NCBI GenBank assembly: GCA_964508365.1
Contig: CAZDTP010000012.1
Coordinates: forward strand, 9,573 to 73,572
From: an uncultured archaeon
Lineage (GTDB): Archaea > Asgardarchaeota > Lokiarchaeia > Sigyniarchaeales > SOKP01
Length of the DNA: 64,000 nucleotides
Direction of reading: 5' to 3'
The position numbers were made by a program, and so were the translations under genes. Under the pieces are notes generated by a model. The model was not told where the DNA came from and made no database searches. It saw only the letters and a list, made by a program, of their open reading frames with translations. Positions 13,514 through 49,747 of the stretch are shown piece by piece. The stretch's first letter is position 1; the number at the start of each line of letters is the position of its first letter.

Positions 13514-14446
13514 TTACAATGGAAAATAAAGTTTAGATAATGGATGATCCTCAGAATCGAATTTGTTTTTAAAGTTCATTTTTGAGTTTCTACGTATCAT
13601 TGCGTCCACTATCGCAGTTGAAGGAAATATATACTCTGCTTTTTCTAAAGTGCCATAAATAATGAAATCAGTACCCATAGCTAATGCTAAAGAAACCCCA
13701 GCCGCTTCACAAGCTCCTTTAAAATTTCCCTTGAAAATCTCATTTTTAATACACCATCTCCCTATTACTCCCACTGGAGCTGTTCCCGTAGGTAACCCAA
13801 ATTCTTCCTTTAATCTATAAATATTTCTTGAAGCGACCCCTATAGTGGGAATTTCAAACACACTAGTGAAGAGTAGCAATTTTTTTAAGCCAGCTCTTTG
13901 AGCTTTTTCGATTAAACCCTCCTCTTTATCCTTTCCTTTAAGTATATCGATTAAACCTGCAATTCGGGGATTTCTTGGATTAAATGATTGAATTATCGCG
14001 GATTCAACATTACATTCTAAGATGCCATTAAGTTCTTCTTCTGTAAGTGTGTAATTAATTGAGGTGTAGATCGCTCTATTATTTAAACCAATTTCCCTAA
14101 TAAATTTCATTAGGTTTATTCTTATTTCCGAAGAAACAGCATTCAATAAAAATGGGTCCGTTGATATTTCTGCAACAAATTGGACATATTTCTGGAGAGC
14201 GAGTTCACTTGTTCCGGCTATATCGAGCATACATGGATTTCCAGATTGATCGGAGAGTTCCTTTTGCATATATATTAACTCTTCAGTTTTTTTCTTATCA
14301 AATAAACCTTTCTTCTCATCTTTTACCTTTTTATCTCCTTGATGAAATATACTCCCAATCAATACGGTGGGATTTTCTCCAACTGTTCCTCCAAGTTTAA
14401 TTCCGTCTATATCTAACACTTGCTGTTCTTTTCTAAAATTTATCAT
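13514..14446 (-). CDS. mtrH: MtrH-family methyltransferase (methylcorrinoid:pterin methyltransferase)
   Basis: FRKEQQVLDIDGIKLGG..GENPTVLIGSIFH.G, NRAIYTSIN, KEEFGLPTG.AP, GTDFIIYG. Confidence 0.85.
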   Translation of the reverse strand: MINFRKEQQVLDIDGIKLGGTVGENPTVLIGSIFHQGDKKVKDEKKGLFDKKKTEELIYMQKELSDQSGNPCMLDIAGTSELALQKYVQFVAEISTDPFLLNAVSSEIRINLMKFIREIGLNNRAIYTSINYTLTEEELNGILECNVESAIIQSFNPRNPRIAGLIDILKGKDKEEGLIEKAQRAGLKKLLLFTSVFEIPTIGVASRNIYRLKEEFGLPTGTAPVGVIGRWCIKNEIFKGNFKGACEAAGVSLALAMGTDFIIYGTLEKAEYIFPSTAIVDAMIRRNSKMNFKNKFDSEDHPLSKLYFPL

Positions 14447-18500: not shown

Positions 18501-18986
18501 TTATGATTTTTGCTCAGGAATGATTATAGTGTGGTCTTCTTTAATTCTATCCAAGACAAGTTGAGTCTTTACTTCTTCTACTTCTGGAAGATTGCGAAGA
18601 TTTTCTATAAGATTCATTGAATCATTATGGTCTAAGCATTTAGCCATAATAAAGATAGGATAGTCTCCCGTAATAATATAAGCGTATTTAATTTGATTCA
18701 TTCGTTCGATTTCTTCTTTAATTTGCTCAAGAGGTCGCCTTGAATTAACTCTGAGCGATGCCATCACCATTTCACGATATCCTAATTTTCGACAATCAAT
18801 GATAGCCATGTATTTTTTAATTAGAGTTTCTTCTAATTTTTGAATTCTAGTTCGAATAGCTGTTTGACTCATATCTGTCTTTTCAGCTACTTCCCGAATG
18901 GTCATTTTACCATCTTCTTGTAATAATTCTAAAATTCGTTTATCAACATTATCTATGTTACCATTTGTCAAGCTTACTGATACCAT
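18501..18986 (-). CDS. Lrp/AsnC family transcriptional regulator, divergent from the tusA-dsr-hdr operon
   Basis: DNVDKRILELLQEDGKMTIREVAEKTDMSQTAIRTRIQKLE HTH; ITGDYP in the C-terminal RAM domain. Confidence 0.92.
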   Translation of the reverse strand: MVSVSLTNGNIDNVDKRILELLQEDGKMTIREVAEKTDMSQTAIRTRIQKLEETLIKKYMAIIDCRKLGYREMVMASLRVNSRRPLEQIKEEIERMNQIKYAYIITGDYPIFIMAKCLDHNDSMNLIENLRNLPEVEEVKTQLVLDRIKEDHTIIIPEQKS

Positions 18987-19235
18987 TTAATTTTCACTTT
19001 AAATCTGTTCTTAATCTTGTTCTCTAATACTTAAATTAGTTTAACTTTTATAAAAATTTTTTCACTAATAATTCTAATTCTGTTAGTTTTTTTAATAACT
19101 TAAATACGATTCTTTTAAATTAAAAAACTATGATTTAAATAACAAGTTATATTTTTATTTAGTAAAGAATACCAGAATAGTTTTTTTATGGTATTAAAAC
19201 AAGAAAAACAAAAAAAAAAACTAAAGTGAAAAAAA

Positions 19236-19460
19236 ATGGCTGATAAAACATTAAATGCAATCGGTTTAAAATGTCCCATGCCAGTTTTAAAAACGAAGAA
19301 GGAACTGAAAGGAATGACTTCAGGGCAGGTCTTAGAGCTTATTGTCGATGATAAAGGAGCTTTAAAAGACATTCCAGCCTTATTAGGGAAAACTGGGGAT
19401 GAATTACTCGAAACTAATGAATCTGATGATCAAGTAGTTTTCTTGATTAAAAAAGCATGA
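19236..19460 (+). CDS. tusA: TusA/SirA family sulfur carrier
   Basis: LNAIGLKCPMPVLKTKKEL (CPxP), GQVLELIVDD. Confidence 0.92.
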   Translation: MADKTLNAIGLKCPMPVLKTKKELKGMTSGQVLELIVDDKGALKDIPALLGKTGDELLETNESDDQVVFLIKKA

Positions 19461-19488
19461 ACTTGATAATTTATTTGAGGGACGAGCG

Positions 19489-19857
19489 ATGACGACATAT
19501 ACATTCTTTATTAGTACAGAACCTTATAAATTTGAGGTTACAGATTCGCTAATTGAACTTTGTAAGGCTATCATAAAAAAGGGAAACTCCATCAAGGGAT
19601 TATTCTTTTTTGGATCGGGTGTCTACAACTTAAAGGGAGACATTAGTGCTGGAGCAACGATACGCAATTTACCTAAAAAGTTACAAGATTTTGCTCTTGA
19701 GAACAATATTCCTGTATCGGGTTGTAGTACATGGGTAAGTTTAACTGGTCTAAAGGAAGAGGAATTTATTGAAGGTGCTACTGAAGAAGGGTTAGGTGAC
19801 TTTTCAAATTGGTCAGTAGAATCTGATAAAATAATAGTTTTTGGAACGGGGGGATAA
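19489..19857 (+). CDS. dsrE: DsrE/TusD family sulfurtransferase subunit
   Basis: ISTEPY, LFFFGSGVYN, Cys in VSGCSTW at the usual active-site position; first of an E-F-H triplet. Confidence 0.75.
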   Translation: MTTYTFFISTEPYKFEVTDSLIELCKAIIKKGNSIKGLFFFGSGVYNLKGDISAGATIRNLPKKLQDFALENNIPVSGCSTWVSLTGLKEEEFIEGATEEGLGDFSNWSVESDKIIVFGTGG

Positions 19858-19859
19858 TA

Positions 19860-20228
19860 ATGGTGGAATCAGTAGTAATTATAACAGACCAATCACCCGT
19901 AGGTAAGAATTCTGCAGCAGAAGCAATTAGGATTGGATCTGGTTTTGTGGCGTTAGGAGAATATATCAATTGTCAAGTGGTATTTATGGGTGATGCGTTA
20001 TACTTGTTGAATAAAAATGCAGTTCCTAATGCTATTGACATGGATTCTAATGATGAGGTACTTGAAATCGCAGATTTATCAGATTTAGAGTTGTACATAA
20101 TAGATACAGACTTGAAGAATGCTGGCATGACAGAAGATGATCTAATTGAATATGAGAGTTTAAAGATAATATCTATTGAGGAATTATCTGATTTAATAGA
20201 TCAAGCAGATACATGCTTTAGATTCTAA
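19860..20228 (+). CDS. dsrF: DsrF/TusC family protein
   Basis: QSPVG..SAAEAIRIG, VVFMGDALYLL. Confidence 0.75.
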   Translation: MVESVVIITDQSPVGKNSAAEAIRIGSGFVALGEYINCQVVFMGDALYLLNKNAVPNAIDMDSNDEVLEIADLSDLELYIIDTDLKNAGMTEDDLIEYESLKIISIEELSDLIDQADTCFRF

Positions 20229-20241
20229 TGGAGGGAAAAAG

Positions 20242-20571
20242 ATGGAAATAGTATACTTATTCGGATTTAGTGAAAGGACAGGGAACCATTTAGAAAGGCT
20301 ATTGCCCTTATTAAAAGTGCAAATTCAGAAAGGAGCAAATGTCGGTTTAGTCTTTATACACGATGGAGTGATTGGATTAAACACCAATGGATCAATTCCA
20401 AGCAAATTGGAAGAATTATTAAACTCTAATATTACATTAAAAGCCATGGTTCCAGATATGAAAGCACGAGGAATACCCATTGAGAGCTTGCATGATAAAA
20501 TAAAACCAATTGAATATGATGAGTTAGTAGAAATATTAGATAATACTCAAAAAATAATTTCATGGATGTAA
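20242..20571 (+). CDS. dsrH: DsrH/TusB family protein
   Basis: LVFIHDGVIG, PDMKARGI, IEYDELVEIL...KIISW. Confidence 0.8.
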   Translation: MEIVYLFGFSERTGNHLERLLPLLKVQIQKGANVGLVFIHDGVIGLNTNGSIPSKLEELLNSNITLKAMVPDMKARGIPIESLHDKIKPIEYDELVEILDNTQKIISWM

Positions 20572-20695
20572 AATAATCAAAAATTAAAAATTTTTTAATA
20601 ATTAATAAATCAAAAATAACGGTCATAGATTTGACGTCAATAATTAAGAACAACAAAAAAATTAAAAATAAAATAAAAAATAGAAGTGAAAAAAT

Positions 20696-21112
20696 ATGGG
20701 AGAAACAATAAACTATATAGTAAAGGACAAATCATTCGAAAAGTTCGCAATGATGATGCTCCTAGGTACCACAGCAGACGCTATGGAAACAAAATCCAAC
20801 TTTTTCTTCACCTTTTGGGGTTTGAACTTATTAACCAAAAAGTTTAAACCTAAAGTTGCTGGAATGCCTACACCTATGAAGGGTATGGGTGCAAAGATTT
20901 TTAGAAAAAGGATGGCAAAGTTTGGAATTGAAGATCCATGGGGTATGATTAAAGACGCTGTCGAAAATGGTAATATGAAATTATTTCCATGCCAAATGAC
21001 AATGGATTTAATGGGAATTAAGCGAGAAGATATGCTTGATTTTGTTGAAGATCCTGTAGGTGCCGCAACATTCTTAGAAATGTGTGAAGGCGGAAAAATG
21101 GTCTCACTATAA
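20696..21112 (+). CDS. DsrE2-like (DrsE_2) sulfur-relay protein
   Basis: FFFTFWGLNLL, FPCQMTMDLMGI, VGAATFL. Confidence 0.85.
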   Translation: MGETINYIVKDKSFEKFAMMMLLGTTADAMETKSNFFFTFWGLNLLTKKFKPKVAGMPTPMKGMGAKIFRKRMAKFGIEDPWGMIKDAVENGNMKLFPCQMTMDLMGIKREDMLDFVEDPVGAATFLEMCEGGKMVSL

Positions 21113-21165
21113 ATAAATTTTTAAAAATTTTTTTTTTAATTCAAATTAATGAAATAGTGGAAAAA

Positions 21166-21723
21166 ATGTCAGAAACAAAAGAAGAACACCGAGAATTTAA
21201 GACAGATGAAGATTTCGATAAAGATTATTTTAAAAATATTGAAAGAAAGTCAAATATTTGGCAATGTATTCAGTGTGGAACGTGCACGGCCAGCTGTGAG
21301 TCTGGACGTTGGACTGCACTTAAAACAAGATTAATCATTAGAAAAGTATGTTTAGGAGATCTTAGTGTTCTTAAAGACCCCGATATTTGGCTTTGTACAA
21401 CTTGTTATCAATGTTATGAACGCTGTCCTCGTGATGTAAGGCCAACTGATGTAATAATGGAATTAAGAAATTACGCTACTAAATTAGGAAATATTTCGCC
21501 ATCTCACCGAGCGGTTGTTGGCTATTTAAAGAATTTTGGACATGCCGTACCTATAAATGACGAGATTAGAAAACGAAGGGTCGAATTAGGATTAGAAGAA
21601 CTCCCTCCAACTGCGTTTAAATATAAACAAGAGGGAGATGATAAAGATTTAAAGAAATTTGAAGAACATTTGTTTGATCTTCCTCCAGTTAAGGAGGAAA
21701 AAAAGAAGGAAGAGGAGAAGTAA
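21166..21723 (+). CDS. hdrC: Heterodisulfide reductase subunit C
   Basis: CIQCGTCTASC and CTTCYQCYERCP ferredoxin motifs, GHAVP; ORF track starts at GTG 21157. Confidence 0.93.
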   Translation: MSETKEEHREFKTDEDFDKDYFKNIERKSNIWQCIQCGTCTASCESGRWTALKTRLIIRKVCLGDLSVLKDPDIWLCTTCYQCYERCPRDVRPTDVIMELRNYATKLGNISPSHRAVVGYLKNFGHAVPINDEIRKRRVELGLEELPPTAFKYKQEGDDKDLKKFEEHLFDLPPVKEEKKKEEEK

Positions 21724-21726
21724 GAA

Positions 21727-22644
21727 ATGGTAAAAGAACATACATTTTCATTTTTTCTCGGCTGTCTCATGCCAAATAGATATCCCGCAATTGAAAAAGC
21801 AACAAAGTTTGTAATGGGGAAACTTGGATACGAGCTTTTGGACATGGAACGTGCTAGTTGCTGTCCGGCTCCAGGAGTATTTCGATCATTTAATAAATTT
21901 GATTGGATGGTAGCAGGTGCTAGAAATCTCTGCATTGCTGAAAAACTCGATGCAGACATTCTTACGGTTTGTAATGGATGTTTTGGAACATTACAAGAGA
22001 TTAACAAACACTTGAAAGAAAACGAAGATCACAGAGAATTAGTAAATGAAAAATTAAAACTGCTCGGAGATTACGAGTTTAAAGGTACGATTGATGTCCG
22101 GCACATTGCTGAAGTATTAGGGTACGAAGTAGGCCCATGGGGCATAGAAGATCTAATTACACGAAAAGTAAACGCGCATGCTGCTGTACATTATGGGTGT
22201 CATTTTCTAAAACCTACAAGAATTCGAGAGATTGAAAGCTCAGAAGGACCTACCATCATCGAAGATTTTATTGAGGTATTAGGAGTAGAATCTGTTAGAT
22301 TTAAGGAGCAGTTAACTTGTTGTGGTGCTGGTGGAGGTGTAAAAGCGTATTCTGGTGATACCAGTATGACGATTTTTGGAGAAAAAATGAAAAATATTGA
22401 CGAAGTTGAGCCAGATTTTATTTTGGATATATGTCCTTTCTGTCATTTACAATTTGAGACGGGACAAGATTATCTAAATAAAAATAAGGGTTGTAATTAC
22501 GATTATCCAGTTATTCATCTTTCCCAACTCGTTGCTTATTGTATGGGTATGGACCAAGAATTTGTTGGTCTTCAATATCAAATGATGGGAAAGGATTACA
22601 TTTTTGGTGGAGAAGAAGTAAAAAAAGAAGAGGGGTCGATTTAG
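21727..22644 (+). CDS. hdrB: Heterodisulfide reductase subunit B
   Basis: FLGC, SCCPAPG, VCNGC, HYGCH, CCGAGGG, CPFCHLQF (two CCG domains). Confidence 0.95.
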   Translation: MVKEHTFSFFLGCLMPNRYPAIEKATKFVMGKLGYELLDMERASCCPAPGVFRSFNKFDWMVAGARNLCIAEKLDADILTVCNGCFGTLQEINKHLKENEDHRELVNEKLKLLGDYEFKGTIDVRHIAEVLGYEVGPWGIEDLITRKVNAHAAVHYGCHFLKPTRIREIESSEGPTIIEDFIEVLGVESVRFKEQLTCCGAGGGVKAYSGDTSMTIFGEKMKNIDEVEPDFILDICPFCHLQFETGQDYLNKNKGCNYDYPVIHLSQLVAYCMGMDQEFVGLQYQMMGKDYIFGGEEVKKEEGSI

Positions 22645-24660
22645 ATGGCCGTTAAAGAAGATAAAATGGAAAAAAGCAAAACTGAATCGGGAGACTTTGA
22701 AGAACCCAGAATTGGCGTTTTTGTATGTCATTGTGGTCATAACATTGCTGGAACTGTGGATGTCGCAAAAGTGGCAAATTACGCAAAAGAGTTACCAAAT
22801 GTTGTAAAAGCGGAGCATTATATGTTTATGTGTTCAAAACCAGGCGTTCAGATGGTCAAAGATTCGATTAGAGAATTAGGGGTTAATAGAACTGTTGTAG
22901 CAAGCTGTTCAAAAAATCAACATGGTTTGACTTTTGCGAAAGCTATTGCTGAAGAGGGTATTAATAAACACAAACACCAACAAGTAAACATAAGAGAGTA
23001 TTGTAGTTGGGTTCATAAAAAAGACGAGGAAAAAGCAACTGCAAAAGCACTTCGATTGGTCGAAGCTGGAGTAAATCGAGCTCGAAAACTTGAAGATGTA
23101 GAAACTAGACGAGTATCGACGACTAAAGCAGCTTTAGTTATTGGTGGGGGTATCGCTGGCCTTAGATCCGCTCATGATTTGGCAGAATTAGGAATACCCG
23201 TGTTTTTGGTAGAAAAAAATTCTACAATTGGAGGGCACATGACACAATTAAATAAAACATTTCCAACTTTAGAATGTCCCCAATGCTCGATTTCACCTTT
23301 AACTAATGGAGTAGCGAATCATCCTTTAATTGAACTTTATACAAACGCCCAAATTAAGAGCGTTGAGGGTTCATTAGGAAATTTTGAAGTTGAGATTGAA
23401 ATAAAGCCTCGCTATGTTAAAGATAACTGTACTTCTTGTGGCGAATGTTCTTTACACTGTCCAGTAGAAGTGCCTAGTGAATGGGACAAAGGAATGTCTA
23501 TGCGAAACGCTATTTACAAAGCATATCCGCAAGCAATTCCCGCAACATTCGTAAGGGACAAAAAATCTTGTATTGAGTGTAATACATGTATTAACATATG
23601 TCCAGTCCAAGCGATTGATTTTTCGATGGAAACTGAGACTAAAACGGTGAAAGTTGGTTCGATTGTAGTTGCTGTGGGATATGATGAATACGATCCTACG
23701 GAAATAGAACCATATCATTATGGAAAAGAGGGATATGAAGATGTTATTACTCAATTAAAATTAGAACGAATGTTATCACCAACATCTCTTACTAATTCTG
23801 AAGTGTTGCGACCATCTGACGGAAAACTACCAAAGAGTATTGTAATGATTCAATGCGTGGGTAGTAGAAACGATCAAGTTGGCAATCAGTATTGTACTGG
23901 TGTATGCTGCAAATTTGCGATAAAAAACGCTCGAATTGTAAAAGAAATGTATCCTGATACCGATGTGACGATTTGTTATATAGATATACGAACTCCAGGA
24001 TTAAATTTCGAAGAGTTATATAAATCTGCTCAAGAAGTTGGAGTCAGATTCATCCGAGGTAGACCTTCGGAAATTATTAAAGACCCTATAAATGGAGAAT
24101 TAAAAGTTATAGTAGAGGACACCTTAAGCATGACACCTTTACAATTAAAAGCTGATTTGGTTGTGTTGTCAGCAGCGATGGTGCCACCCGAAGGAATAGG
24201 ACCACTTGGTTCTAAGCTTAAAGTTTTACGTTCCAAGGAAGGTTTTTTAAAAGAATTTCATATTAAGATGAACCCTACATTGAGTAGTAAAGGAGGAATT
24301 TTCTTAGCGGGTGCGATACAAGGACCAAAAGACATTTCTGAAACCGTAGCGCACGCGGGGAGTGCTGCTGCTTTAGCTGCTGCACCTCTAGTTAAAGGTT
24401 ATATAGAAAAGGAAATGTTGGTACCAGTTATAGATTATGATTTATGCGTTAATTGTGGAATTTGTAAGACCATTTGCGCACCAGCCGCAATCGATATTGA
24501 TGATAATGGAAGACCATCAGTCAATGAGATAGCGTGTAGATCATGTGGAATGTGTATGCCAAGTTGTCCGACAATGGCGATTCAACTGATTAATTTTACA
24601 GAGGATCAAATGCATGATGAAATAATTGCCGTATCGGGCGGAGGTGCCGTGTGCGAATGA
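22645..24660 (+). CDS. hdrA: Heterodisulfide reductase subunit A (flavin-bifurcating, all-Cys form)
   Basis: RIGVFVCHCG, NIRE.CSWVH, VIGGGIAG, KTFPTLECPQC, IQCVGSR...YCTGVCC, GPKDI, C-terminal ferredoxin motifs. Confidence 0.96.
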   Translation: MAVKEDKMEKSKTESGDFEEPRIGVFVCHCGHNIAGTVDVAKVANYAKELPNVVKAEHYMFMCSKPGVQMVKDSIRELGVNRTVVASCSKNQHGLTFAKAIAEEGINKHKHQQVNIREYCSWVHKKDEEKATAKALRLVEAGVNRARKLEDVETRRVSTTKAALVIGGGIAGLRSAHDLAELGIPVFLVEKNSTIGGHMTQLNKTFPTLECPQCSISPLTNGVANHPLIELYTNAQIKSVEGSLGNFEVEIEIKPRYVKDNCTSCGECSLHCPVEVPSEWDKGMSMRNAIYKAYPQAIPATFVRDKKSCIECNTCINICPVQAIDFSMETETKTVKVGSIVVAVGYDEYDPTEIEPYHYGKEGYEDVITQLKLERMLSPTSLTNSEVLRPSDGKLPKSIVMIQCVGSRNDQVGNQYCTGVCCKFAIKNARIVKEMYPDTDVTICYIDIRTPGLNFEELYKSAQEVGVRFIRGRPSEIIKDPINGELKVIVEDTLSMTPLQLKADLVVLSAAMVPPEGIGPLGSKLKVLRSKEGFLKEFHIKMNPTLSSKGGIFLAGAIQGPKDISETVAHAGSAAALAAAPLVKGYIEKEMLVPVIDYDLCVNCGICKTICAPAAIDIDDNGRPSVNEIACRSCGMCMPSCPTMAIQLINFTEDQMHDEIIAVSGGGAVCE

Positions 24661-25109
24661 GTGATTGCGAAACTCCTGATGAATATGTTCAAGAAAGGAT
24701 TCAAAATGTTGTTGTATTCATGTGCAACGAATGTGGTCAAGGAAGCGCAAATACTGCGGGTGTCGCTCGAATGTCGTACGATGCTGCAATTAGAATAATT
24801 AGAGTTCAATGCACGGGTCAAGTCGGACCGATTCAGATTATGGAAGCGTTAAATAACGGTGCTGATGCAGTCGCTTGCGTAGGATGTTGTTTAGGCGCCT
24901 GTCATTTTTTTAATGGTAATATAATTTCGATGCACAGAATTAAATTGATGAAAAAACTCTTTAAAGAGTTAGGTTATAGCGATCAATTTGTAAACCAATA
25001 CACTTCGAGAGCTGCGGAGGGTGAAACTGCTGTTGGCGATTTCGAAGATATTATAGACCGATTAACAACTGCAATTCTAGATAAGGGGACGATAAAAGAT
25101 GGATGTTAA
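24657..25109 (+). CDS. mvhD: MvhD-type [2Fe-2S] subunit
   Basis: FMCNEC, RIIRVQCTGQV, GADAV, GC..GACHF..GN; ATG overlaps hdrA TGA. Confidence 0.9.
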   Translation: MSDCETPDEYVQERIQNVVVFMCNECGQGSANTAGVARMSYDAAIRIIRVQCTGQVGPIQIMEALNNGADAVACVGCCLGACHFFNGNIISMHRIKLMKKLFKELGYSDQFVNQYTSRAAEGETAVGDFEDIIDRLTTAILDKGTIKDGC

Positions 25110-26340
25110 AGTATTCCAATTTAACGGTTGTAATAAGTGCTTCAATGAGACTGTATTACTTAAACAAGACGCTAAATATAAAGTCGAGTTTGTCTCTGAT
25201 CCAAAGAATTGGAAAGGAGAAAAAGTTGACATATCAGTTATTACAGGGTATTTACTTCCTAACGATTTGGAGCACGTGGAACGTATAAAGAACAATTCAA
25301 ATAAAGTAATTGCTTATGGAGACTGTCCAGCTACAGGTGGAGTATTTGCTTTAGCAAATCAAAAAGGGCACGACGTTAAACCTTTAGCAACCTTAATTGA
25401 AGGTTCAAGTAGTGTATATGGATGTTTAGGCGAAATTGAAGAATTAAAATTAGCGATTGACGGAAGAGATGTTCCAATATTAAAAAATTTATGTCAAATT
25501 TGCTCCAGAAAAGCAACATGTGACTATTTAGAAAAAATTAATAGACAAATTGAATTAGAGGATTCTGAAACATGTTTTAACGACTTAGGTTTTCTCTGTA
25601 GTGGCTTTACTGCGACTGAGTGTAAAGAAAAATGTATTGATTACAATACTCCTTGTAGAGGTTGTAAACCAAGCATAGATCGTTCTGGAATTCGCATGTT
25701 AGCAATGTTCGGCACATTAGCAGGGAACATTGAAATTGCTACCGAACATTCAGTAAAGGGAGCAACTGACAAATTAGGCGACGCTGACGACGATCTAACA
25801 GACAGCTTACCTGATATCGTCGGCAATTTTTTCAGATTTACATTACCTACTTCTGGTTTGCCAAAAGGTAAAATCTCTTCCTCAGGAACTTTATTAGAAG
25901 ATGTTTTCATTGGTAGGCTGATTGAGGAGATCCCTTTGATAACCGGACTTATAGGGGGGGCTAAATCAATATCTTTTACGCTTAAATTCATAAAGGCATA
26001 CGAGGAAGCAAATCAAATAGAAGTAAGCGAACAAACGAAAAAATACCGGAACGAGCTCCTACAATTAGAAAAAGACCTACAAGATGCTATAATTAAAGAA
26101 GATGCATCGAAATACAAAGAGATTACAAATAAAATCCGATTTATTGCTGGAAATATGAACTTATCAAACGTATTTTTTGGTGGATTCAAGTCAATTATCG
26201 ATCCTAACGATGACTTTAACAATTATAAAACCCATGTTTTTGATGTGGTGGATGGAACCTATAAAAATGGTTCGATAGAATATACCATTAATCCAGATGG
26301 TATTATAAAAGAAATTAAAATTAACGAGGAATTATTATGA
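25099..26340 (+). CDS. MvhG-like Fe-S protein fused to a degenerate [NiFe]-hydrogenase large-subunit fragment
   Basis: aa 1-252: GCNKC, AYGDC.ATGG, GCL, CQIC, CF..G.LC.G....C...C...PCRGC, GNFFRFTLP; aa about 265-320 resemble the MvhA L1 region without its Cys. Confidence 0.8.
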   Translation: MDVKVFQFNGCNKCFNETVLLKQDAKYKVEFVSDPKNWKGEKVDISVITGYLLPNDLEHVERIKNNSNKVIAYGDCPATGGVFALANQKGHDVKPLATLIEGSSSVYGCLGEIEELKLAIDGRDVPILKNLCQICSRKATCDYLEKINRQIELEDSETCFNDLGFLCSGFTATECKEKCIDYNTPCRGCKPSIDRSGIRMLAMFGTLAGNIEIATEHSVKGATDKLGDADDDLTDSLPDIVGNFFRFTLPTSGLPKGKISSSGTLLEDVFIGRLIEEIPLITGLIGGAKSISFTLKFIKAYEEANQIEVSEQTKKYRNELLQLEKDLQDAIIKEDASKYKEITNKIRFIAGNMNLSNVFFGGFKSIIDPNDDFNNYKTHVFDVVDGTYKNGSIEYTINPDGIIKEIKINEELL

Positions 26341-28802
26341 GTTTTGAACTATTAAAAAGTGAGATTATTGACGCGGGTTTATGCCAAGGCTGTGGTTTAT
26401 GTTCAGGGTACTGCAAACATATTGAAATGGAGACGCTAAGACCAATTTTAAAAGATTATTGTATCCTTGAAAGAGAAGGACAGGATTGCGGTAAGTGTTA
26501 CCAAAACTGCCCTCAAGTATTGCAGAAAAAATTTAAGGAGCTACAACCCTTAGGAATTTATTCCTTAAGAAGTAAAGACTCTAAAATATTAGAAAAAGCG
26601 TCAAGTGGAGGATTTGTTACTGCAATCGCAAAGCATCTCCTCGAGGAAAAGGTTTTATCCGAAATTGTAATGGTGCAAAACATTGACGATTTACCTAAGG
26701 CAAGCAGTGTAACTAATCCTGAAGATGTAATTCAAAGGGCAGGGATCGTATATGGGCGATCTGGGGTTTTAGAAAAGTTAGTAGAAGTTTCTGGAGACAA
26801 TTTAGAACCTTTAGGCATCGTGGGAGTTCCATGTGAGATCAGAGGAGCTGCTGAAATGGGCGTAGAAATGAACCGGGAAATCCTTAAAATAGGGTTATTC
26901 TGTAATTCAAGTATCAGAACGGAAGAAACAGATAGAGGTTTAGTTTGTTCACCATGTTGTGGAGGTTGTCCTTCAGGTGTTAATGCACAAGGTTATATAT
27001 CGTTAATACGAGAACATAAATACTTAGAAGCTGTAGAATTAATCCGCAAAGACAATCCATTGCCTTCTATTTGCGGAAGAATCTGTACGCATGAATGCGA
27101 ACACGGTTGCACGTTAATCGGCTCAGATCATCCAGTGGCGATAAGAGAACTAAAAAAATTTATAACAGAGTACGAAATTAAGCAAGGGAAACAAAAAACT
27201 GTAAAGACTAAGAAAAAGCTAGGAAAGAAAGTAGCAATAATAGGTGCTGGACCAGCAGGTTTGACAGCAGGATATTATTTATCGCTTAAAGGATATTCCC
27301 CAACGATTTTTGAAAAAACCGATCATACTGGCGGAATGCTTCGATTTGGAGTGCCTCAATTCAGATTACCTAACTACGTACTAGATTACGATATAGAGAC
27401 GATAAAAAATGCTGGCGTGGAAATTATATTCAACAAACCATTAGGTCCTGACATGACTATTGAAGACCTAAAAAACGACGGATTTAAAGCCATTTTTATC
27501 GCGACGGGTCAATATAAACCAAGAACATTACACTTAGAAGGAGAGGAACTTCCGAACGTACATGTTGCTATTAATTTCCTTATCGATAGAAAATATCGCG
27601 ATTGGCAGAAACAGCAAGAGTTTAAAGGTAAAACCATAGGAATAATAGGAGGTGGAGCGGTAGCCGTTGATGTTGCACAGACAGCACTGAGGTTAGGCGC
27701 AGAAAAAATAGATCTTGTTGATGTCATGACTGAAAAGGATCTTGAACTCGTAATACGAGAGATTCCTGAAGAAGAATTAAAATTCATGGAATATCATTTT
27801 AATACTTCCGTATCAAAAATTACTGAAGGAGAAGGAGAGGAACTATTATTAAATAGTTATAAAATTCAATGGAGCAATGCAGATGATACTGGCAGAAGGT
27901 CAATTAATAAAATCGAGGGTTCTGATTTTGAGATCAATGCAGACGCTATAGTTATCGCTGTTGGTCAAGCCGTTGATTTTAATTTAATAGATATCGCAAC
28001 TGATAATAAACTCAAAAAAGAGCGAAATAAAATTGAGATCAATCCAATAACATTTGAGACTAATATTCCAGGAATATTTGCTGGTGGAGATACAATTACA
28101 AACTCAAAAGCTGTTGCAATTGCCGCAATCGCTCACGGTAAAGAAACAGCTATCTCAATAGATCGATATTTAAATGGAGAAGACCTTTCAGCGGGTCGTT
28201 ATCAACAAAACAAAATGTTTTTCGAAGGAATTTCGAAAACTCCAAAAGACTATTCATTAAAACCAGAATCATTAGAAGAAGCTACTGAAGATGTCCAATG
28301 GAATTTTGAGGAGATCGAAGCAAAATTTAGCGAAGAAATGGCGCTAGCAGAGGCTAGACGTTGTTTAAGTTGTAATCATTACTGCTCGCATTGCCAAGAT
28401 TTTCCTGCAATTTATTCAGACTTTACAGCTGGAGAGGTTGGTTCCAAACCAGGCTTCACAACCGTCGTAGTTTGGACAGAAAGAGGTAAAGAAATCATTG
28501 AAAAAGCCTTAAACCAAGGATTATTTGAAGAAGGCAGCGTTAACAAGGACGAATTGAAGAAAGCAATCACTCTAAAATCAAAACGAGAAATGGAAGTTTT
28601 AGAAAAAACTCCAAGGCAACAAGTTTTAGACTACATCACTCTTCAAGGTCCAACCACAATTAGCAACATGTCTGAAACCTTAAATTTAGAAACTAAAAAA
28701 GTACGCTACGAAGCTTTACGATTGGTTCAATTGAATCAAATTGAGATGAATATTGAACCGGGCTTCGAAGAACCAATGTTTTCACCTATATGTGAAGATT
28801 AA
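26337..28802 (+). CDS. FrhB/FdhB-like protein with inserted GltD/NfnB-type FAD/NAD(P)H oxidoreductase and C-terminal winged helix
   Basis: 2x[4Fe-4S], SSGG.VT, VGVPCEI, IGLFC | C...CP, CGRIC...CE..C, GAGPAG, GGG.VAVD, FAGGD, EARRCLSC | C.HC.DF, DFTAGEVGS, TTVVVWTERG | HTH-like tail. Confidence 0.85.
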   Translation: MSFELLKSEIIDAGLCQGCGLCSGYCKHIEMETLRPILKDYCILEREGQDCGKCYQNCPQVLQKKFKELQPLGIYSLRSKDSKILEKASSGGFVTAIAKHLLEEKVLSEIVMVQNIDDLPKASSVTNPEDVIQRAGIVYGRSGVLEKLVEVSGDNLEPLGIVGVPCEIRGAAEMGVEMNREILKIGLFCNSSIRTEETDRGLVCSPCCGGCPSGVNAQGYISLIREHKYLEAVELIRKDNPLPSICGRICTHECEHGCTLIGSDHPVAIRELKKFITEYEIKQGKQKTVKTKKKLGKKVAIIGAGPAGLTAGYYLSLKGYSPTIFEKTDHTGGMLRFGVPQFRLPNYVLDYDIETIKNAGVEIIFNKPLGPDMTIEDLKNDGFKAIFIATGQYKPRTLHLEGEELPNVHVAINFLIDRKYRDWQKQQEFKGKTIGIIGGGAVAVDVAQTALRLGAEKIDLVDVMTEKDLELVIREIPEEELKFMEYHFNTSVSKITEGEGEELLLNSYKIQWSNADDTGRRSINKIEGSDFEINADAIVIAVGQAVDFNLIDIATDNKLKKERNKIEINPITFETNIPGIFAGGDTITNSKAVAIAAIAHGKETAISIDRYLNGEDLSAGRYQQNKMFFEGISKTPKDYSLKPESLEEATEDVQWNFEEIEAKFSEEMALAEARRCLSCNHYCSHCQDFPAIYSDFTAGEVGSKPGFTTVVVWTERGKEIIEKALNQGLFEEGSVNKDELKKAITLKSKREMEVLEKTPRQQVLDYITLQGPTTISNMSETLNLETKKVRYEALRLVQLNQIEMNIEPGFEEPMFSPICED

Positions 28803-28843
28803 CTAATCAAAAAAAAATATTAAAAAATAACGAGGTAAAAATT

Positions 28844-29080
28844 ATGAATTTCGACCAAGAATTAAACGTGTGTGGCTTAGTTTGTCCCGTACCTGCATTG
28901 AAAACCAAGAAACAACTCATGAAGATGCGACCAGGTACAGTGTTAAAAGTAATAACAGACTATAAACCAGCATCAGAATCAGTTCCACGTGATTTAGCAA
29001 AAACTAAGCACAAGCACTTAGGAACTGATTTTCTCGACGATGATGAGCTATGGCACATCTATTTTGAAGCAGTAAAATAA
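28844..29080 (+). CDS. tusA: Second TusA/SirA family sulfur carrier
   Basis: LNVCGLVCPVPALKTKKQL, GTVLKVITD. Confidence 0.9.
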   Translation: MNFDQELNVCGLVCPVPALKTKKQLMKMRPGTVLKVITDYKPASESVPRDLAKTKHKHLGTDFLDDDELWHIYFEAVK

Positions 29081-43598: not shown

Positions 43599-44843
43599 AT
43601 GGGTTCAATTAGTCTATCCAATAAAATATGTGAACTGTCAAAGGAAGATTTACTTCAGAGAGCAAAAAAATATATCTTTTCTTCGGGATTGAATGATGGC
43701 GCTTCGAAATTGTGCAAAGCAAATATGAAATATGGCTTAGCTCAATTCCATCTTATTCAAGAGAAATATGGTTTTGAACCTAAAGCAACCTTTATTTCAT
43801 CCCCTGATGAAACGATTTCAAGAAATAATTTCCGTTGGAATTCTGGATTAGGATATGGTGGAAGATTAAATTGGGGAAATGGGGATGATAAATTAATATT
43901 TCTAAACATTAAGCCTAATTGTTGTGGATTACTAGTCGGAGGATTAGAAGAGTTACCTGATCCTTACGATATCATAAAAAAAATTGACAATGTAAAGAGT
44001 ACCGAATTATATTACGATAACATTCAACTCAATTGGGATTATGACATTTCTAATCATTTTATTAATTGTTTTAAAATGAAAAACCTATCTGATACCAACT
44101 TTCCTCCTTATATGTTCATGATTCATGGATCCGCCCCGGAATTTCGCGACGATAAGCATGGAATTGGTTTGTACATTGATATTTCGAAGACATTAAAAGA
44201 ACTTGCTATTGAAGAACAAACGATGTTTGGAAAGCAATATATTTTATTAGACTCTGATGCGAGAGAATATCTTGAATTTAATAAAAAAGCACTTCTTTTT
44301 TCGAATAAGAAGAGAGAAATGATAGCTCGCAATATTTTTAATCCTGATTACAAAATAATATGTAATACTCCACACCAATTCTTAAAAGATTTTAATAATA
44401 TGTATTTAGGGAGTAATTGCACTGATATTAATACTAATACTCATCAAACTAATATTTTCCCTACTGCCCTTCGAGCTGATTTAGCTTGTTATCTCTTTCG
44501 AGGTAAAAAAAGTTTTTCAAGAACGGCACTTGTAAACAACAACTTCTTTGCAAGAGCCGAAGATTTAGAGCTTCTAAACTTACTGAGCAATGCGGATATA
44601 CTGCCCCACGGTGGAGGTTATATGCTACCTGATATAAAGAGAGTTCAGAAAGTTTTGGAATACAAATATCAAAGATATTTTGCATGCGAACTAGTAAAAG
44701 ACCAAAAAAAATTAAAAATTGTGAGAAATGTAAAGGAGTTACAATTCGAATACAGAGGACGAGATGTTATACTCAAATCGATTCAGTTAGAACTTGGCGA
44801 AGTTATAGCCCGATTAAATCCAATTTTTTCTTTGAAGTTATAA
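43599..44843 (+). CDS. Divergent RtcB-fold protein (RNA ligase-like)
   Basis: Colinear motifs SPD..., GLGYGG, PNCCG, SNHFI, MIHGS, PHQ, LPHGGG, VIARLNP..SLK. Confidence 0.7.
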   Translation: MGSISLSNKICELSKEDLLQRAKKYIFSSGLNDGASKLCKANMKYGLAQFHLIQEKYGFEPKATFISSPDETISRNNFRWNSGLGYGGRLNWGNGDDKLIFLNIKPNCCGLLVGGLEELPDPYDIIKKIDNVKSTELYYDNIQLNWDYDISNHFINCFKMKNLSDTNFPPYMFMIHGSAPEFRDDKHGIGLYIDISKTLKELAIEEQTMFGKQYILLDSDAREYLEFNKKALLFSNKKREMIARNIFNPDYKIICNTPHQFLKDFNNMYLGSNCTDINTNTHQTNIFPTALRADLACYLFRGKKSFSRTALVNNNFFARAEDLELLNLLSNADILPHGGGYMLPDIKRVQKVLEYKYQRYFACELVKDQKKLKIVRNVKELQFEYRGRDVILKSIQLELGEVIARLNPIFSLKL

Positions 44844-44844
44844 A

Positions 44845-46896
44845 TTATTCTACTTTTGCGCCTGAGGGGATTTCTTTATCAGGTGTTAATACAGATACGA
44901 TATCTCCATCAACAGCAGCAAGAAGCATACCTTCGCTTAGAATCCCTTTAAGTTTTCTCGGTTCCAAGTTTGCAAGTATTGCGATTTTTTTACCTTTTAG
45001 TTCGTCTGCTTTATATTGTTCAGCTAAACCCGCAACTAATGTCCTCTTTTCGCCTCCTAAAGCAATAGATAGTTTATATAATTTGTCAGCTTTCGGAACC
45101 TTTTCTACATTCTCAATGAGTGCTACTCGTATATCGAGCTTCTTAAATTCTTCGTAGGAAACCAATTCTTTACCACCTTTTTTAGGTTTTTCTTCTTTTA
45201 AGTTTTTATATTCTTTTTTAATTTCCTCAATCTCTAATTTTTGAAAAAGAGGTTGAGGTTTCTTGATTTTCTGTCCTGCTTTTAATGCGTTACTATTGAT
45301 ACTATCCCATGACAATTCGCTTAATTTTGGAGCATTTAAAGAAGAGAGAATCTTTTCAGAAGTATTTGGTATAAATGGACCTAATAGAATAGCTAACGCA
45401 TACACTGCTTGAGCACATATATTAAATACATGTCCGGCAGCTTTTTTATCTTCTTTGATCAAATGCCAAGGGGCTCTTTCATTCAAAAATATATTCCCCT
45501 CTTTTCCAAAATTGACGATATCTCTTATTGCTTTTCTTATTTTAAAGTTTAGTAAACTTTCTCCCACCTGTAAGCTTATTGTATTTATTTTCTCTATAAA
45601 CTTTCTATCGGGTTCAATAGATTCTACTTTCTCGGGAATAATATTATTAAATTGCTTTTCAATAAATGTTAACGTACGATGGATGAAATTACCAATATTA
45701 TCATTAAGAGTTTTTATATTATTTTCAAATTCGGACCATAAAAACGATGTATCACTAGTTTCTGGGCGATTAAATAACAAATTAAATCTCCAATAATCAA
45801 GAGGAGCTAATTTTAGCGCCTCATCAATCCATATCCCAATTCCTCTAGATTTAGAAAGTTTCTCATTCTCATACAATAACCATTCTGTTGAGGAGACATT
45901 ATATGGTAACACAAGTTTTTCACTATCTCCTTTATCTTCGTTATATGCAATTAACAAACCTGGAAAAACTATTAAGTGAAATATAATGTTATCCTTCCCG
46001 ATAAAAAACACTGTTTTCGTATTAGGATCTTTCCAAAAGGAATTAAATCTACCAGGTTCTTTGATTATTTTATCTGCCCATTCTTTCACTGCGGTGATAT
46101 ATCCCAATACAGCTTCAAACCATACATAAATCGTCTTATGTTCAGCACCTTTGAAAGGTGCAGGAATCCCCCATTCAAGATCTCGTGTAATTGCTCGTTC
46201 TGGTAATCCCTCTTCAATACTATTTAAGCACATTTTTCGTGCATTAGGGGGGATTATTTCATTTTCATCAATCAATTTTTTCAATCGGTCTTGTAATTTA
46301 GGTAAATTCAAGTACCAGTGTTTTGTTTTCTTATTTACAGGCGTGTTTCCACATATTGCACATCTTGGTTTTATCAATTCTAATGGTGTGAGGATTTTTT
46401 GGCACTTATCACACTGATCTCCTCTGGCGCCATCATCTTTGCAGTTAGGACAAGTACCTTCTACAAATCTATCAGGCAAGAACAAGTTATCATTTTCACA
46501 ATAGAGAGATTCAATTTCTTTTTCTTTTACATATCCATTTTTTTGAATATCCAAATACATCTTTTTTACATATTCAATATGAGTAGGATTATGAGTTATT
46601 GTATAATTATCAAAAGAGATCTGCCATTTCTCGTGTAATTCTTTAATAATATTATGATATTTCAAAGCTAATTCTTTGGCAGGAACTTTAGATCTTTTTG
46701 CTTCCACAGAAATGGGCGTTCCATGAGAATCCGATCCTGAAACAAAAACCACATCTTCACCCTTCATTCTCAAAAATCTTGCAAACACATCCGCTGATAG
46801 TGTACTTCCAATTAAATTGCCCAAATGTGGTGTAGCATTTACATAAGGCCATGCTGAAGTAATTACCCATTTATCTTTTTTAGTGTTGGACATCAT
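44845..46896 (-). CDS. metG: Methionyl-tRNA synthetase with C-terminal tRNA-binding domain
   Basis: TSAWPYVNATPHLGN, SGSDSHG, Zn knuckles, YVWFEA, GKDNIIFH, KLSKS, OB domain ANLEPRKLKG..SEGM. Confidence 0.97.
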   Translation of the reverse strand: MMSNTKKDKWVITSAWPYVNATPHLGNLIGSTLSADVFARFLRMKGEDVVFVSGSDSHGTPISVEAKRSKVPAKELALKYHNIIKELHEKWQISFDNYTITHNPTHIEYVKKMYLDIQKNGYVKEKEIESLYCENDNLFLPDRFVEGTCPNCKDDGARGDQCDKCQKILTPLELIKPRCAICGNTPVNKKTKHWYLNLPKLQDRLKKLIDENEIIPPNARKMCLNSIEEGLPERAITRDLEWGIPAPFKGAEHKTIYVWFEAVLGYITAVKEWADKIIKEPGRFNSFWKDPNTKTVFFIGKDNIIFHLIVFPGLLIAYNEDKGDSEKLVLPYNVSSTEWLLYENEKLSKSRGIGIWIDEALKLAPLDYWRFNLLFNRPETSDTSFLWSEFENNIKTLNDNIGNFIHRTLTFIEKQFNNIIPEKVESIEPDRKFIEKINTISLQVGESLLNFKIRKAIRDIVNFGKEGNIFLNERAPWHLIKEDKKAAGHVFNICAQAVYALAILLGPFIPNTSEKILSSLNAPKLSELSWDSINSNALKAGQKIKKPQPLFQKLEIEEIKKEYKNLKEEKPKKGGKELVSYEEFKKLDIRVALIENVEKVPKADKLYKLSIALGGEKRTLVAGLAEQYKADELKGKKIAILANLEPRKLKGILSEGMLLAAVDGDIVSVLTPDKEIPSGAKVE

Positions 46897-47022
46897 AGAA
46901 CTCCAAATTGGATTATACCAGTTTATTCTTAACTAACAATTACATTGATACTACTTTTAATGATTGTATAAGTAATTTACTTTCTTATTTCAACTTTATG
47001 AGAGAAATCTGATTACTAACAC

Positions 47023-48198
47023 TTATATGATTTGCGCTCCACAAGCTCTACAAGCTTTAATTTCAGAATGCATTTTCTTTAAACAAGGTTCGTGGTAATA
47101 CGCTCCACATTTTTGGCATTGAAATACCTGATAATCACCTAAAAAAATACTGTGGCAATAAGTACAAGATGAATTGATATCTTCAATATCATTTTCTGGA
47201 ATTGAAGCCATTTTAGTAGTGTTAATACCACTTTCATCGATTAATTTGATTTTTGGTTCTTCCTCAGTTTTCTCTTCTATTAACTTTGCTGCTGCCGATG
47301 GAAGTTCTAACAAAAAAAAACAAAATGGACATCTGAACACATTTTCTTTATATTCAGTTTTCTTTGCCCACATAGCCACACACGATAGGTGCATTGGTCG
47401 TTCACATGAAGGACAATATCGTCCTTCACTAAAAAAATCAGAACTCGTTATTGGTGCTTTTACGGAGTGACAGATTTGACATTTTTCTTGACCTCTCTCT
47501 CTACTGCTCATCATGAGCCTTATATCCAAAACGCTAGGTCTTCTCAGTTGTAGTGCTATTTCACTTATTAATGGCGCCAAGTCGCTTTTTTTGTCTGGAG
47601 AAAAATAATCTGTTGAAGTCTTAAGTTCTTTTTTTGATGCAAACGACATTCCAGCATTTAATAATGCTTTTGAATTGTTAAAGAATCCAAATTGCCCTCC
47701 AGTCAGTCTTACAATTTTCTTTAAGATGCTTTGAGAATAATCTTGGGTTTTCCCCAATTGACAAGCATCAATATAAATTCCCAAACCTTTAGCAACATCC
47801 ATTGTCTTTTGGATTTTTTCTTTATATTCCAATTTATTGTCTGATATAATAAAAATTCTACTGGTTTTACCTCCTAATTTTCGCATTTCACCAACTAGAA
47901 ATTGAATTGCAAAAGCTAATCCTTCATCAAGCAGACCATTACCAGAAACTTGGATTTTTTCTAAAGATTTAACCAATTGTTCTTCATCATTACTAAATGA
48001 AAAAAGTTTCTTGATCGTAGCACCAAAAGATAGAATTGCTATTCTATCCTTCGGGTCTAGTATAAATTTCTCGTGAATAAAGTTTTTTGCTGTTTCCAGT
48101 GCAGTTAATAGACGACTAGGTTTAAAATCTTTCCTAACCATAGATCTCGAAGAATCTATAAGAACTACGCAATCTTCTATTTTTATTAAATCTTGCAT
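47023..48198 (-). CDS. vWA domain protein with two C4HC3 RING-like zinc fingers (Ssl1/p44- or Rpn10-like vWA)
   Basis: IDSSRSMVRKDFKPSRL (MIDAS DxSxS); CQIC..CPSC..H.SC..CPFC and CTYC..CQKC..H.PC..CRAC. Confidence 0.8.
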   Translation of the reverse strand: MQDLIKIEDCVVLIDSSRSMVRKDFKPSRLLTALETAKNFIHEKFILDPKDRIAILSFGATIKKLFSFSNDEEQLVKSLEKIQVSGNGLLDEGLAFAIQFLVGEMRKLGGKTSRIFIISDNKLEYKEKIQKTMDVAKGLGIYIDACQLGKTQDYSQSILKKIVRLTGGQFGFFNNSKALLNAGMSFASKKELKTSTDYFSPDKKSDLAPLISEIALQLRRPSVLDIRLMMSSRERGQEKCQICHSVKAPITSSDFFSEGRYCPSCERPMHLSCVAMWAKKTEYKENVFRCPFCFFLLELPSAAAKLIEEKTEEEPKIKLIDESGINTTKMASIPENDIEDINSSCTYCHSIFLGDYQVFQCQKCGAYYHEPCLKKMHSEIKACRACGAQII

Positions 48199-48235
48199 TA
48201 TTAGAAAATTTGTTGATATTTTTATTTCAATTAAA

Positions 48236-49594: not shown

Positions 49595-49747
49595 TTAATC
49601 TTTCGACCTTATATATATTTTAATTCTCTAATCATACTTATTATCTTAATATCCCACCATTAAGTAATCTATCGAATAAATTTAATATAAATTAGCAAAT
49701 TTTAATATTCTTAGATTATTTAATAACTAAAATATTGACAATTACGG

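Follow-up and report, generated by a model that had tools for sequence, protein, structure and literature searches.

The substrate of soluble heterodisulfide reductase (HdrABC) in archaea that do not make methane is an old question, and Asgard genomes are rich in Hdr paralogues. The FlxABCD-HdrABC system of Desulfovibrio is NADH-dependent and the sulfur-carrier protein DsrC is its proposed substrate. In the Elp-Hdr complex, ElpA is a molybdopterin-free remnant of FdhA, ElpB oxidises F420H2 and ElpC is the MvhD subunit (PMC12350162). Here we describe a block of twelve genes from an uncultured Lokiarchaeia archaeon (Sigyniarchaeales; assembly GCA_964508365.1) that combines HdrABC and MvhD with two unusual subunits and with sulfur carriers of the TusA, DsrEFH and DsrE2 families. 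The block lies within 64,000 nucleotides (nt) of contig CAZDTP010000012.1, in the following called the window; the contig (C12) belongs to a genome of 4.07 Mb that is an estimated 100% complete. We propose, with a probability of about 0.5, that the block encodes one soluble complex similar to Mvh-Hdr and Elp-Hdr, in which HdrB reduces sulfane sulfur delivered by the carriers and not the heterodisulfide of coenzyme M and coenzyme B (CoM-S-S-CoB). Sulfur bound to TusA/DsrE proteins is a concrete candidate for the substrate of such an Hdr, and the block would add to Elp-Hdr a second case in nature where a catalytic subunit became a scaffold and a flavoprotein took over electron input.

All twelve open reading frames (ORFs) are on the plus strand between positions 19236 and 29080, and the ORF listing and family scans confirmed their coordinates (Table 1). 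The gene order is TusA1-DsrE-DsrF-DsrH-DsrE2-HdrC-HdrB-HdrA-MvhD-G*-FrhB-like protein of 821 amino acids (aa)-TusA2, and the intergenic spacing is between -11 and +44 nt throughout the block, with the one exception of 124 nt between dsrH and dsrE2. The original prediction, made from the sequence of the window, of twelve co-oriented genes that in many cases overlap or abut and are bracketed by two TusA genes with CPxP motif was accurate: both outer genes match PF01206 and have the motifs KCPMPV and VCPVPA. It was also correct in regarding the complex as one of Asgard archaea, as the cluster is from Lokiarchaeia/Promethearchaeota.

HdrB and HdrC both exceed the NCBIfam equivalog cut-offs for the CoB-CoM heterodisulfide reductase subunits. 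The ten cysteines of the two CCG domains of HdrB (C13, C45, C46, C82, C85, C158, C198, C199, C236 and C239) are invariant in an alignment of 14 orthologues and the protein matches the structure of methanogen HdrB (5odc_B) with an E-value of 7e-90. HdrA is full-length, and family scans detected its FAD stretch and four Fer4 stretches. The block has everything typical for a soluble bifurcating HdrABC of the methanogen type, namely a ten-cysteine HdrB, a full-length HdrA and an MvhD partner, in agreement with the canonical methanogen-type motifs that had been read from the three Hdr subunits. Machinery that belongs to CoM-S-S-CoB as a substrate (CoM/CoB synthesis and Mcr) was not detected: neither McrA (PF02249) nor ComA (PF02679) was found in the genome, a search that did not cover an alternative CoM route. 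About 20 HdrA-like ORFs are present genome-wide, plus many paralogues of MvhD and FrhB; among them are giant HdrA-like fusions of 1004-1161 aa, encoded in arrays that also hold MvhD-like and FrhB-like genes, on contigs C46, C72, C99 and C24.

The gene product encoded directly 3' of MvhD (P0001) is a fusion between an MvhG small subunit (about residues 1-255 of 413) and a cysteine-less relic of a [NiFe] hydrogenase large subunit (about residues 260-413). The N-terminal part matches both Oxidored_q6 and the NCBIfam VhuG model; its closest chains in a PDB profile search are 9sw2_E and 5odc_E (E about 1e-15), the latter with a structural Z-score of 11.6. Twelve cysteines are invariant across 20 diverse orthologues, which suffices for three [4Fe-4S] clusters, as in small subunits of group 3c [NiFe] hydrogenases (Mvh/Vhu). 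Similarity of the relic to large subunits is weak at the sequence level: it matches VhuA with an E-value of 0.004 (residues 266-323), and a profile alignment to the VhuA of the same genome has 30% identity over 82 columns (E 0.002), with the motif RICGIC of this VhuA replaced by GLIGGA. In the AlphaFold model, most of the relic has a predicted local distance difference test (pLDDT) score of about 70-92, and the model aligns with FrhA (6qgt_A; Z 10.4, root-mean-square deviation 2.6, 139 residues), with NuoD of complex I (Z 9.3) and with MbsL (Z 8.7). The relic is visible to VIA-align and hhalign only; Foldseek with the whole model has 5odi_E as top match and recovers the small-subunit half alone. 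With only the relic as query, 1.84 billion representative proteins were searched exhaustively; the 22 clusters returned were all members or fragments of the fusion family, with no true large subunit at E <= 0.001. No cysteine is conserved after residue 189 in the 20 orthologues and a Ni-Fe site is therefore impossible; the ligand motifs RxCGxC and DPCxxC are absent from the relic of about 150 aa, and PF00374 has no match on C12. The description of the operon as hydrogenase-free holds for its function, as no active hydrogenase is encoded in the block, yet the operon holds a hydrogenase fossil: one of the two subunits that had been called novel is MvhG fused to a large-subunit remnant.

The second of these subunits, the 821-aa protein P0002, is, judged by its domains, an ElpB/FrhB-type flavoprotein that is interrupted by an NADPH module of the NfnB/GltD type. 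It starts with two [4Fe-4S] motifs, followed by FrhB_N (residues 75-146), the inserted Fer4_20 with Pyr_redox_2 (194-601), FrhB_C (637-736) and, at the C-terminus, a winged helix. Best matches of the insert are NfnA (9n5u_A, E 5e-85) and NfnB (5jca_L, E 1e-62), and it also has similarity to GltD; for the FrhB halves, the match to ElpB (8rja_E, E 2e-27) is stronger than that to FrhB proper (about 1e-13). As in Elp-Hdr, an FrhB/ElpB-like flavoprotein is encoded beside MvhD and HdrABC. The idea that the two novel subunits feed HdrA is plausible, with P0001 as an iron-sulfur wire of the MvhG type and P0002 as FrhB-like flavoprotein, but NADPH or F420H2 looks more likely as donor than the NADH that had been suggested beside F420H2. 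F420 is plausible because the CofH of the genome reaches 470 bits (cut-off 374) and CofE is also present; F420H2 is a candidate donor and the NADPH-type insert offers a plausible alternative. The winged helix is followed by a tail ending in F[ST]xxC[DE] (window 28560-28802), and the cysteine is present in most long forms of the protein. A "swinging arm" similar to that of DsrC was considered for this tail and rejected as a general mechanism, as the cysteine is absent from the forms of Promethearchaeum syntrophicum MK-D1, Ca. Lokiarchaeum ossiferum and Ca. Harpocratesius and from Thorarchaeota-labelled forms.

Most of the sulfur carriers have a conserved cysteine. Cys13 of TusA1 is found in all 11 orthologues and Cys38 of DsrF in all 12 sequences; Cys79 of DsrE (13/13), which we take to be the counterpart of the active-site Cys78 of the reference DsrE/TusD, and Cys99 of DsrE2 (10/10) are each the only invariant cysteine of their protein. 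DsrH has no conserved cysteine in the orthologue alignment. DsrE2 belongs to the broader Pfam family DrsE_2 and stays below the cut-off of the NCBIfam model NF047629 (49.7 bits, cut-off 210). What had been called a full protein sulfur relay is present as far as the two TusA proteins, DsrEFH and DsrE2 are concerned, but lacks an acceptor of the DsrC/TusE type and has a DsrH without conserved cysteine. A complex prediction for HdrB and TusA2 scored 0.01 (mark 0.32) and is used neither for nor against binding. A further, stand-alone DsrEFH set with 43-49% identity to the set of the window is encoded on contig C44 (20615-21716; locus L050), near a thioredoxin and a TrmB/MarR regulator and with no Hdr gene nearby.

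The block is conserved. P0001 has at least 351 homologues, and all that are named are from Asgard archaea. Of 300 genomes sampled from the phylum, 85 have a match at E <= 1e-10; about 40 of these have the full-length fusion and belong mostly to the window's own family, and in the rest the match is to a normal MvhG of about 257 aa. The neighbourhoods of 77 named loci were surveyed; the complete gene order from TusA1 to TusA2 is found in 40 of the 44 loci that have enough upstream flank to be counted. The FrhB-like gene follows the fusion gene in 67 of 76 loci, and TusA2 is directly 3' of the FrhB-like gene in 64 of 67 (54 under a strict distance filter and ten that failed this filter solely because of overlapping ORF starts). 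That sulfur genes might not be conserved beside hdr in relatives, named in the original prediction as an observation that would speak against it, is ruled out by this survey, as at least one sulfur carrier is present in 72 of 76 loci. Carriers of the block include two cultured archaea, Promethearchaeum syntrophicum MK-D1 and Ca. Lokiarchaeum ossiferum B35, and also Ca. Sigynarchaeum. Thorarchaeota-labelled variants (34-41% identity) have the order HdrCBA-MvhD-fusion protein followed by a short FrhB of 345-385 aa without insert; in most of them TusA is directly next and in two (L121, L124) TusA and DsrEFH abut. The linkage of hdr and carrier genes survives rearrangement, because these variants retain TusA and in some cases DsrEFH.

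Deviating arrangements are also found. Three loci of the window's own family (L055, L074 and L090, the latter identical to L047) have a short FrhB-like subunit of 380-399 aa without the NADPH insert and an extra pair of HdrC/HdrB-like genes directly 3' of TusA2. In Ca. Harpocratesius repetitus (L117, genome G210) and in L041 the FrhB-like subunit has only 142 aa and consists of the ferredoxin segment and the winged helix; genes for Lrp, DsrE2, ThiF, a TusA-like protein, a cysteine desulfurase and a DsrH-like protein are just upstream.

MvhA, Fdh, DsrAB, DsrC/TusE and LbpA had been reported as absent from the window, and family searches of the whole genome agree, placing such genes elsewhere or finding none. 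[NiFe] large subunits are encoded only on contigs C8 and C2, molybdopterin enzymes on C1, C50 and C4 but not on C12, and GcvH/LbpA-like genes only on C2 and C35. Genome-wide, there is no match to DsrC/TusE (PF04358), no NIR_SIR sulfite reductase and no full-length MnmA. Of the genome checks that had been suggested, those for CoM synthesis and DsrC thus came back empty with respect to McrA, ComA and DsrC, but the one for MvhA led to the large subunits on C8 and C2. Cysteine desulfurases are encoded on C11 and C3, and the copy on C3 adjoins its own TusA-like gene.

The C8 locus (L048, about 44356-51534) has the order VhuG-VhuA-VhuU-HdrC-HdrB and is divergent from genes for TusA, a YeeE/TsuA-type transporter and a third DsrEFH set. 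Its VhuG-like small subunit (438 aa, 22 cysteines) precedes a [NiFe] large subunit that ends in ...LPDPWIN, without DPCxxC, and a small VhuU-like ORF has an in-frame TGA at the position of a Ni ligand (..RCFDC[TGA]LSCAAH..); from their sequences, large subunit and VhuU-like ORF together look like a large subunit that is split at a selenocysteine-containing part. The hydrogenase-HdrCB unit is common, being present in 69 of 80 genomes of the class. The sulfur module is found beside it in full in only three of 20 sampled loci of relatives, with TusA alone in one more, and an association of VhuGA-HdrCB with TusA-TsuA-DsrEFH was rejected as a general rule.

An orthologue of the Lrp-family regulator is present upstream of the block wherever the flank of a locus reaches far enough. 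The divergent orientation that had been noted for this gene is found in most loci, but in L110, L111 and L117 the gene is co-directional and within the cluster. In the region 5' of tusA1, the TATA-like TTTAAATA box and a TTTTTTCACTA motif are kept in an alignment of eight relatives, and the TTTAAATA box is probably a promoter element of tusA1. A short T-run soon after dsrH is also present in most of the eight aligned relatives, and the gap between dsrH and dsrE2 possibly acts as a partial terminator or internal promoter. The hairpin predicted in this gap has four base pairs and is not significant (z -0.18); in the equivalent gaps of L035-L047 the T-run is in several cases followed by short inverted repeats that differ in sequence. 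A conserved RNA hairpin was therefore rejected: the inverted repeats of relatives are short and lineage-specific, and that of the window is weak. The MK-D1 orthologues (DSAG12_01139-01151) are all transcribed, with 182-348 reads per kilobase per million (RPKM).

Table 1. Genes and intergenic features of the hdr/sulfur-carrier block and its upstream region (positions within the window)
Feature	Position	Strand	Matches and remarks
Lrp/AsnC-family regulator	18501..18986	-	divergent from tusA1; HTH_AsnC and AsnC_trans_reg matches
Divergent intergenic region	18987..19235		TATA-like TTTAAATA box about 95 nt 5' of the tusA1 ATG
TusA1, 74 aa, CPxP Cys13	19236..19460	+	PF01206, E 2e-24
DsrE/TusD-like, 122 aa, Cys79	19489..19857	+	PF02635; TIGR03012 below cut-off
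DsrF/TusC-like, 122 aa	19860..20228	+	PF02635; TIGR03010 below cut-off
DsrH/TusB-like, 109 aa	20242..20571	+	PF04077, TIGR03011; no conserved Cys
dsrH-dsrE2 gap, 124 nt	20572..20695		T6 run 24 nt past the dsrH stop
DsrE2-like carrier (PF13686/COG2210 type), 138 aa, Cys99	20696..21112	+	PF13686 (DrsE_2), E 4e-22
HdrC, two [4Fe-4S] sites	21157..21723	+	TIGR03290, 175.9 bits (cut-off 160)
HdrB, two CCG domains (non-cubane [4Fe-4S] sites)	21727..22644	+	TIGR03288, 362 bits (cut-off 345)
HdrA, full-length bifurcating type, 671 aa	22645..24660	+	NF040770, 736 bits, profile positions 1-640
MvhD, [2Fe-2S] connector	24651..25109	+	PF02662, E 6e-31
G* (P0001), 413 aa, fusion of MvhG and [NiFe] large-subunit relic	25099..26340	+	profile and structure matches
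ElpB/FrhB-like flavoprotein with NfnB/GltD-type insert (P0002), 821 aa	26337..28802	+	Pfam and PDB matches
TusA2, 78 aa, CPxP Cys14 plus Cys10	28844..29080	+	PF01206, E 7e-19

Outside the block, the window has a gene for an MtrH-family methyltransferase (13514-14446, minus strand; PF02007, E 1e-77), in a genome without detected McrA.

How could such a complex work? Hydride would enter as NADPH at the NfnB/GltD module of P0002, as F420H2 at its ElpB/FrhB module, or at both. From the iron-sulfur clusters of P0002, electrons would move along the three [4Fe-4S] clusters in the MvhG part of P0001, whose nickel-free relic would serve as scaffold only, to MvhD with its [2Fe-2S] cluster and from there to HdrA, where they would bifurcate at the FAD. 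One branch would end at ferredoxin; the other would continue via HdrC to HdrB, at whose two non-cubane clusters sulfane sulfur (a persulfide or derived from thiosulfate), carried by TusA, DsrEFH or DsrE2, would be reduced to sulfide. For the input arm, Elp-Hdr may be regarded as the direct precedent of a dead catalytic scaffold combined with an FrhB-like donor subunit. For the substrate, we infer carrier-bound sulfane sulfur because of the persistent gene linkage, the lack of CoM/CoB metabolism and of DsrC, and the presence of a separate, biosynthetic desulfurase-TusA pair; it is the gene linkage that suggests persulfides on TusA or DsrE proteins as the form on which HdrB may act. The full version of this proposal, with the lokiarchaeial HdrABC as an NADPH- or F420H2-driven bifurcating reductase of sulfane sulfur bound to TusA, DsrE2 or DsrEFH, and with it a new energy-coupled sulfur reaction, is tentative, and we would place its chances well below even.

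Several observations weigh against a carrier-dependent HdrB. The linkage of hdr and carrier genes could reflect co-regulation only, and tusA1-dsrEFH may in part be a separate transcript, because of the T-run in the gap between dsrH and dsrE2 that is echoed in most relatives. The adjacency of hydrogenase-HdrCB units and sulfur modules is sporadic (three full modules and one TusA alone in 20 loci). The neighbours of the Ca. Harpocratesius locus include ThiF and a cysteine desulfurase, a hint of biosynthetic sulfur traffic. Finally, S0/HS- has a potential of about -270 mV and CoM-S-S-CoB one of -140 mV, so that NADPH or F420H2 could drive a bifurcating reduction of ferredoxin only where sulfide is low or where the protein-bound couple is more positive. 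The same hydrogenase-less Hdr could instead reduce an unrelated disulfide, for example that of a low-molecular-weight thiol pair, with the carriers serving biosynthesis (Fe-S clusters, thio-cofactors, tRNA) and being merely co-located or co-regulated. TusA and TusBCD are biosynthetic carriers in E. coli, the T-run together with the gap of 124 nt may split tusA1-dsrEFH from dsrE2-hdr, and in Ca. Harpocratesius ThiF and the cysteine desulfurase adjoin DsrE2 and TusA. However, with neither TusE/DsrC nor full-length MnmA the bacterial outlet of TusBCD is missing, and tRNA thiolation of the bacterial type via TusE and MnmA was rejected for this reason; the genome has a separate pair of cysteine desulfurase and TusA on C3, the Hdr genes are followed by TusA2 at their 3' end in 64 of 67 loci, and DsrEFH, where present in Thorarchaeota-labelled variants, abuts TusA2. 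We regard this alternative as unlikely.

The complex could also run in the opposite direction and oxidise sulfide to carrier persulfide, for activation or detoxification, with reduced ferredoxin as second electron source and confurcation onto NADP+ or F420; this direction stays a candidate because the thermodynamics of the reductive one are restrictive. It would be downhill, because the mean of the potentials of ferredoxin (about -500 mV) and sulfide/sulfane (about -270 mV) is below those of NADP+ and F420. The host archaea inhabit sulfidic sediments, and sHdr systems run oxidatively with TusA and DsrE (PMC11094781). Yet the Hdr subunits belong to the reductive methanogen type and not to the sHdr type, there is no LbpA in the cluster, cysteine desulfurases could supply persulfides in the conventional way and to spend ferredoxin like this would be costly for a fermenter, all of which makes a reverse reaction quite improbable. 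Least credible, and in our opinion very unlikely, is that the Hdr core borrows a hydrogenase, VhuGAU from C8 or MvhAG from C2, and thereby becomes a conventional Mvh-Hdr that depends on H2 or evolves it. There are two [NiFe] large subunits in the genome and MK-D1 has been modelled with MvhADG-HdrABC (Imachi 2020), but in the block the position of MvhG/MvhA is filled by P0001, which is encoded in the block with stop and start codons that overlap and has its 12 cysteines invariant across the 20 orthologues, and both other hydrogenases have their own Hdr partners (HdrCB on C8, an HdrA-MvhD fusion on C2).

Reduction of carrier-bound sulfur by Hdr is not a wholly new idea: the MK-D1 orthologues are listed among the Hdr complexes of this strain (Imachi 2020), and a preprint sketches an Hdr that reduces TusA- and DsrE-bound persulfides together with a 3c hydrogenase (10.1101/2025.07.22.663070). 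A dedicated description of the block was not found in the searchable literature. The carrier-sulfur hypothesis can be tested biochemically, because the block is present in cultured strains (MK-D1 and L. ossiferum) and is transcribed in MK-D1. If true, a fermentative Asgard archaeon could lift electrons from the level of NADPH to ferredoxin, and hence to H2, and pay for this with the reduction of sulfur; hydrogen syntrophy of Asgard archaea would be tied to the sulfur cycle, with a bearing on hydrogen-sulfur syntrophy models for the origin of eukaryotes.

Among known systems with a solved structure, ElpABC-HdrABC of Methanothermobacter marburgensis (PDB 8RJA/8RIU; PMC12350162) is the nearest analogue. 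Both consist of HdrABC, an MvhD homologue and an input arm made of a dead catalytic remnant without cofactor and an FrhB-like oxidiser of hydride carriers, and the FrhB part of P0002 matches ElpB best among the solved FrhB-type chains. The Elp scaffold, however, is a truncated FdhA, while here it derives from MvhG and MvhA, with no gene of the molybdopterin family on C12, and for this reason the system is not a strict Elp. ElpB has neither the GltD/NfnB insert nor the winged helix, the substrate of the methanogen complex is CoM-S-S-CoB and no sulfur-carrier genes have been described for Elp. MvhAGD-HdrABC and VhuAGD-HdrABC of hydrogenotrophic methanogens (PDB 5ODC, 9SW2) have close homologues of HdrA, HdrB, HdrC and MvhD, and residues 1-255 of P0001 correspond to an MvhG that retains the full set of 12 cluster cysteines. 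Still, missing Ni-Fe ligands set the system apart from an Mvh hydrogenase: of the large subunit only about 150 residues remain, fused to MvhG, a flavoprotein of the NADPH/F420 type is added, and neither Mcr nor ComA was detected in the genome.

With sHdr-LbpA, the block shares the synteny of Hdr-like genes with TusA and sulfur transferases of the DsrE family, in that case DsrE3 (PMC11094781). sHdr systems are oxidative; their HdrA is short and does not bifurcate, HdrBC is present as two pairs and LbpA is obligatory, whereas the block has an HdrA of 671 aa, a single HdrBC pair, MvhD and no LbpA in the cluster; membership in this group was rejected. The carriers resemble those of TusA-TusBCD-TusE of E. 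coli and TusA-DsrEFH-DsrC of Allochromatium in having a CPxP TusA, a DsrE with a single conserved cysteine (Cys79) and DsrF and DsrH partners. In contrast to these relays, NCBIfam equivalog cut-offs are missed and neither a full MnmA nor DsrAB was found, and because TusE/DsrC is missing too, the carriers represent an incomplete Tus/Dsr relay. Like Flx-Hdr, the block encodes an Hdr of a non-methanogen that would receive electrons from a pyridine nucleotide via an MvhD-like subunit; the input subunits are from different families, and the place of the missing DsrC may be taken by TusA/DsrE. The Flx-Hdr label has been applied to other Asgard clusters (Imachi 2020). By analogy, the system encoded by the block probably works most like Elp-Hdr or Flx-Hdr.

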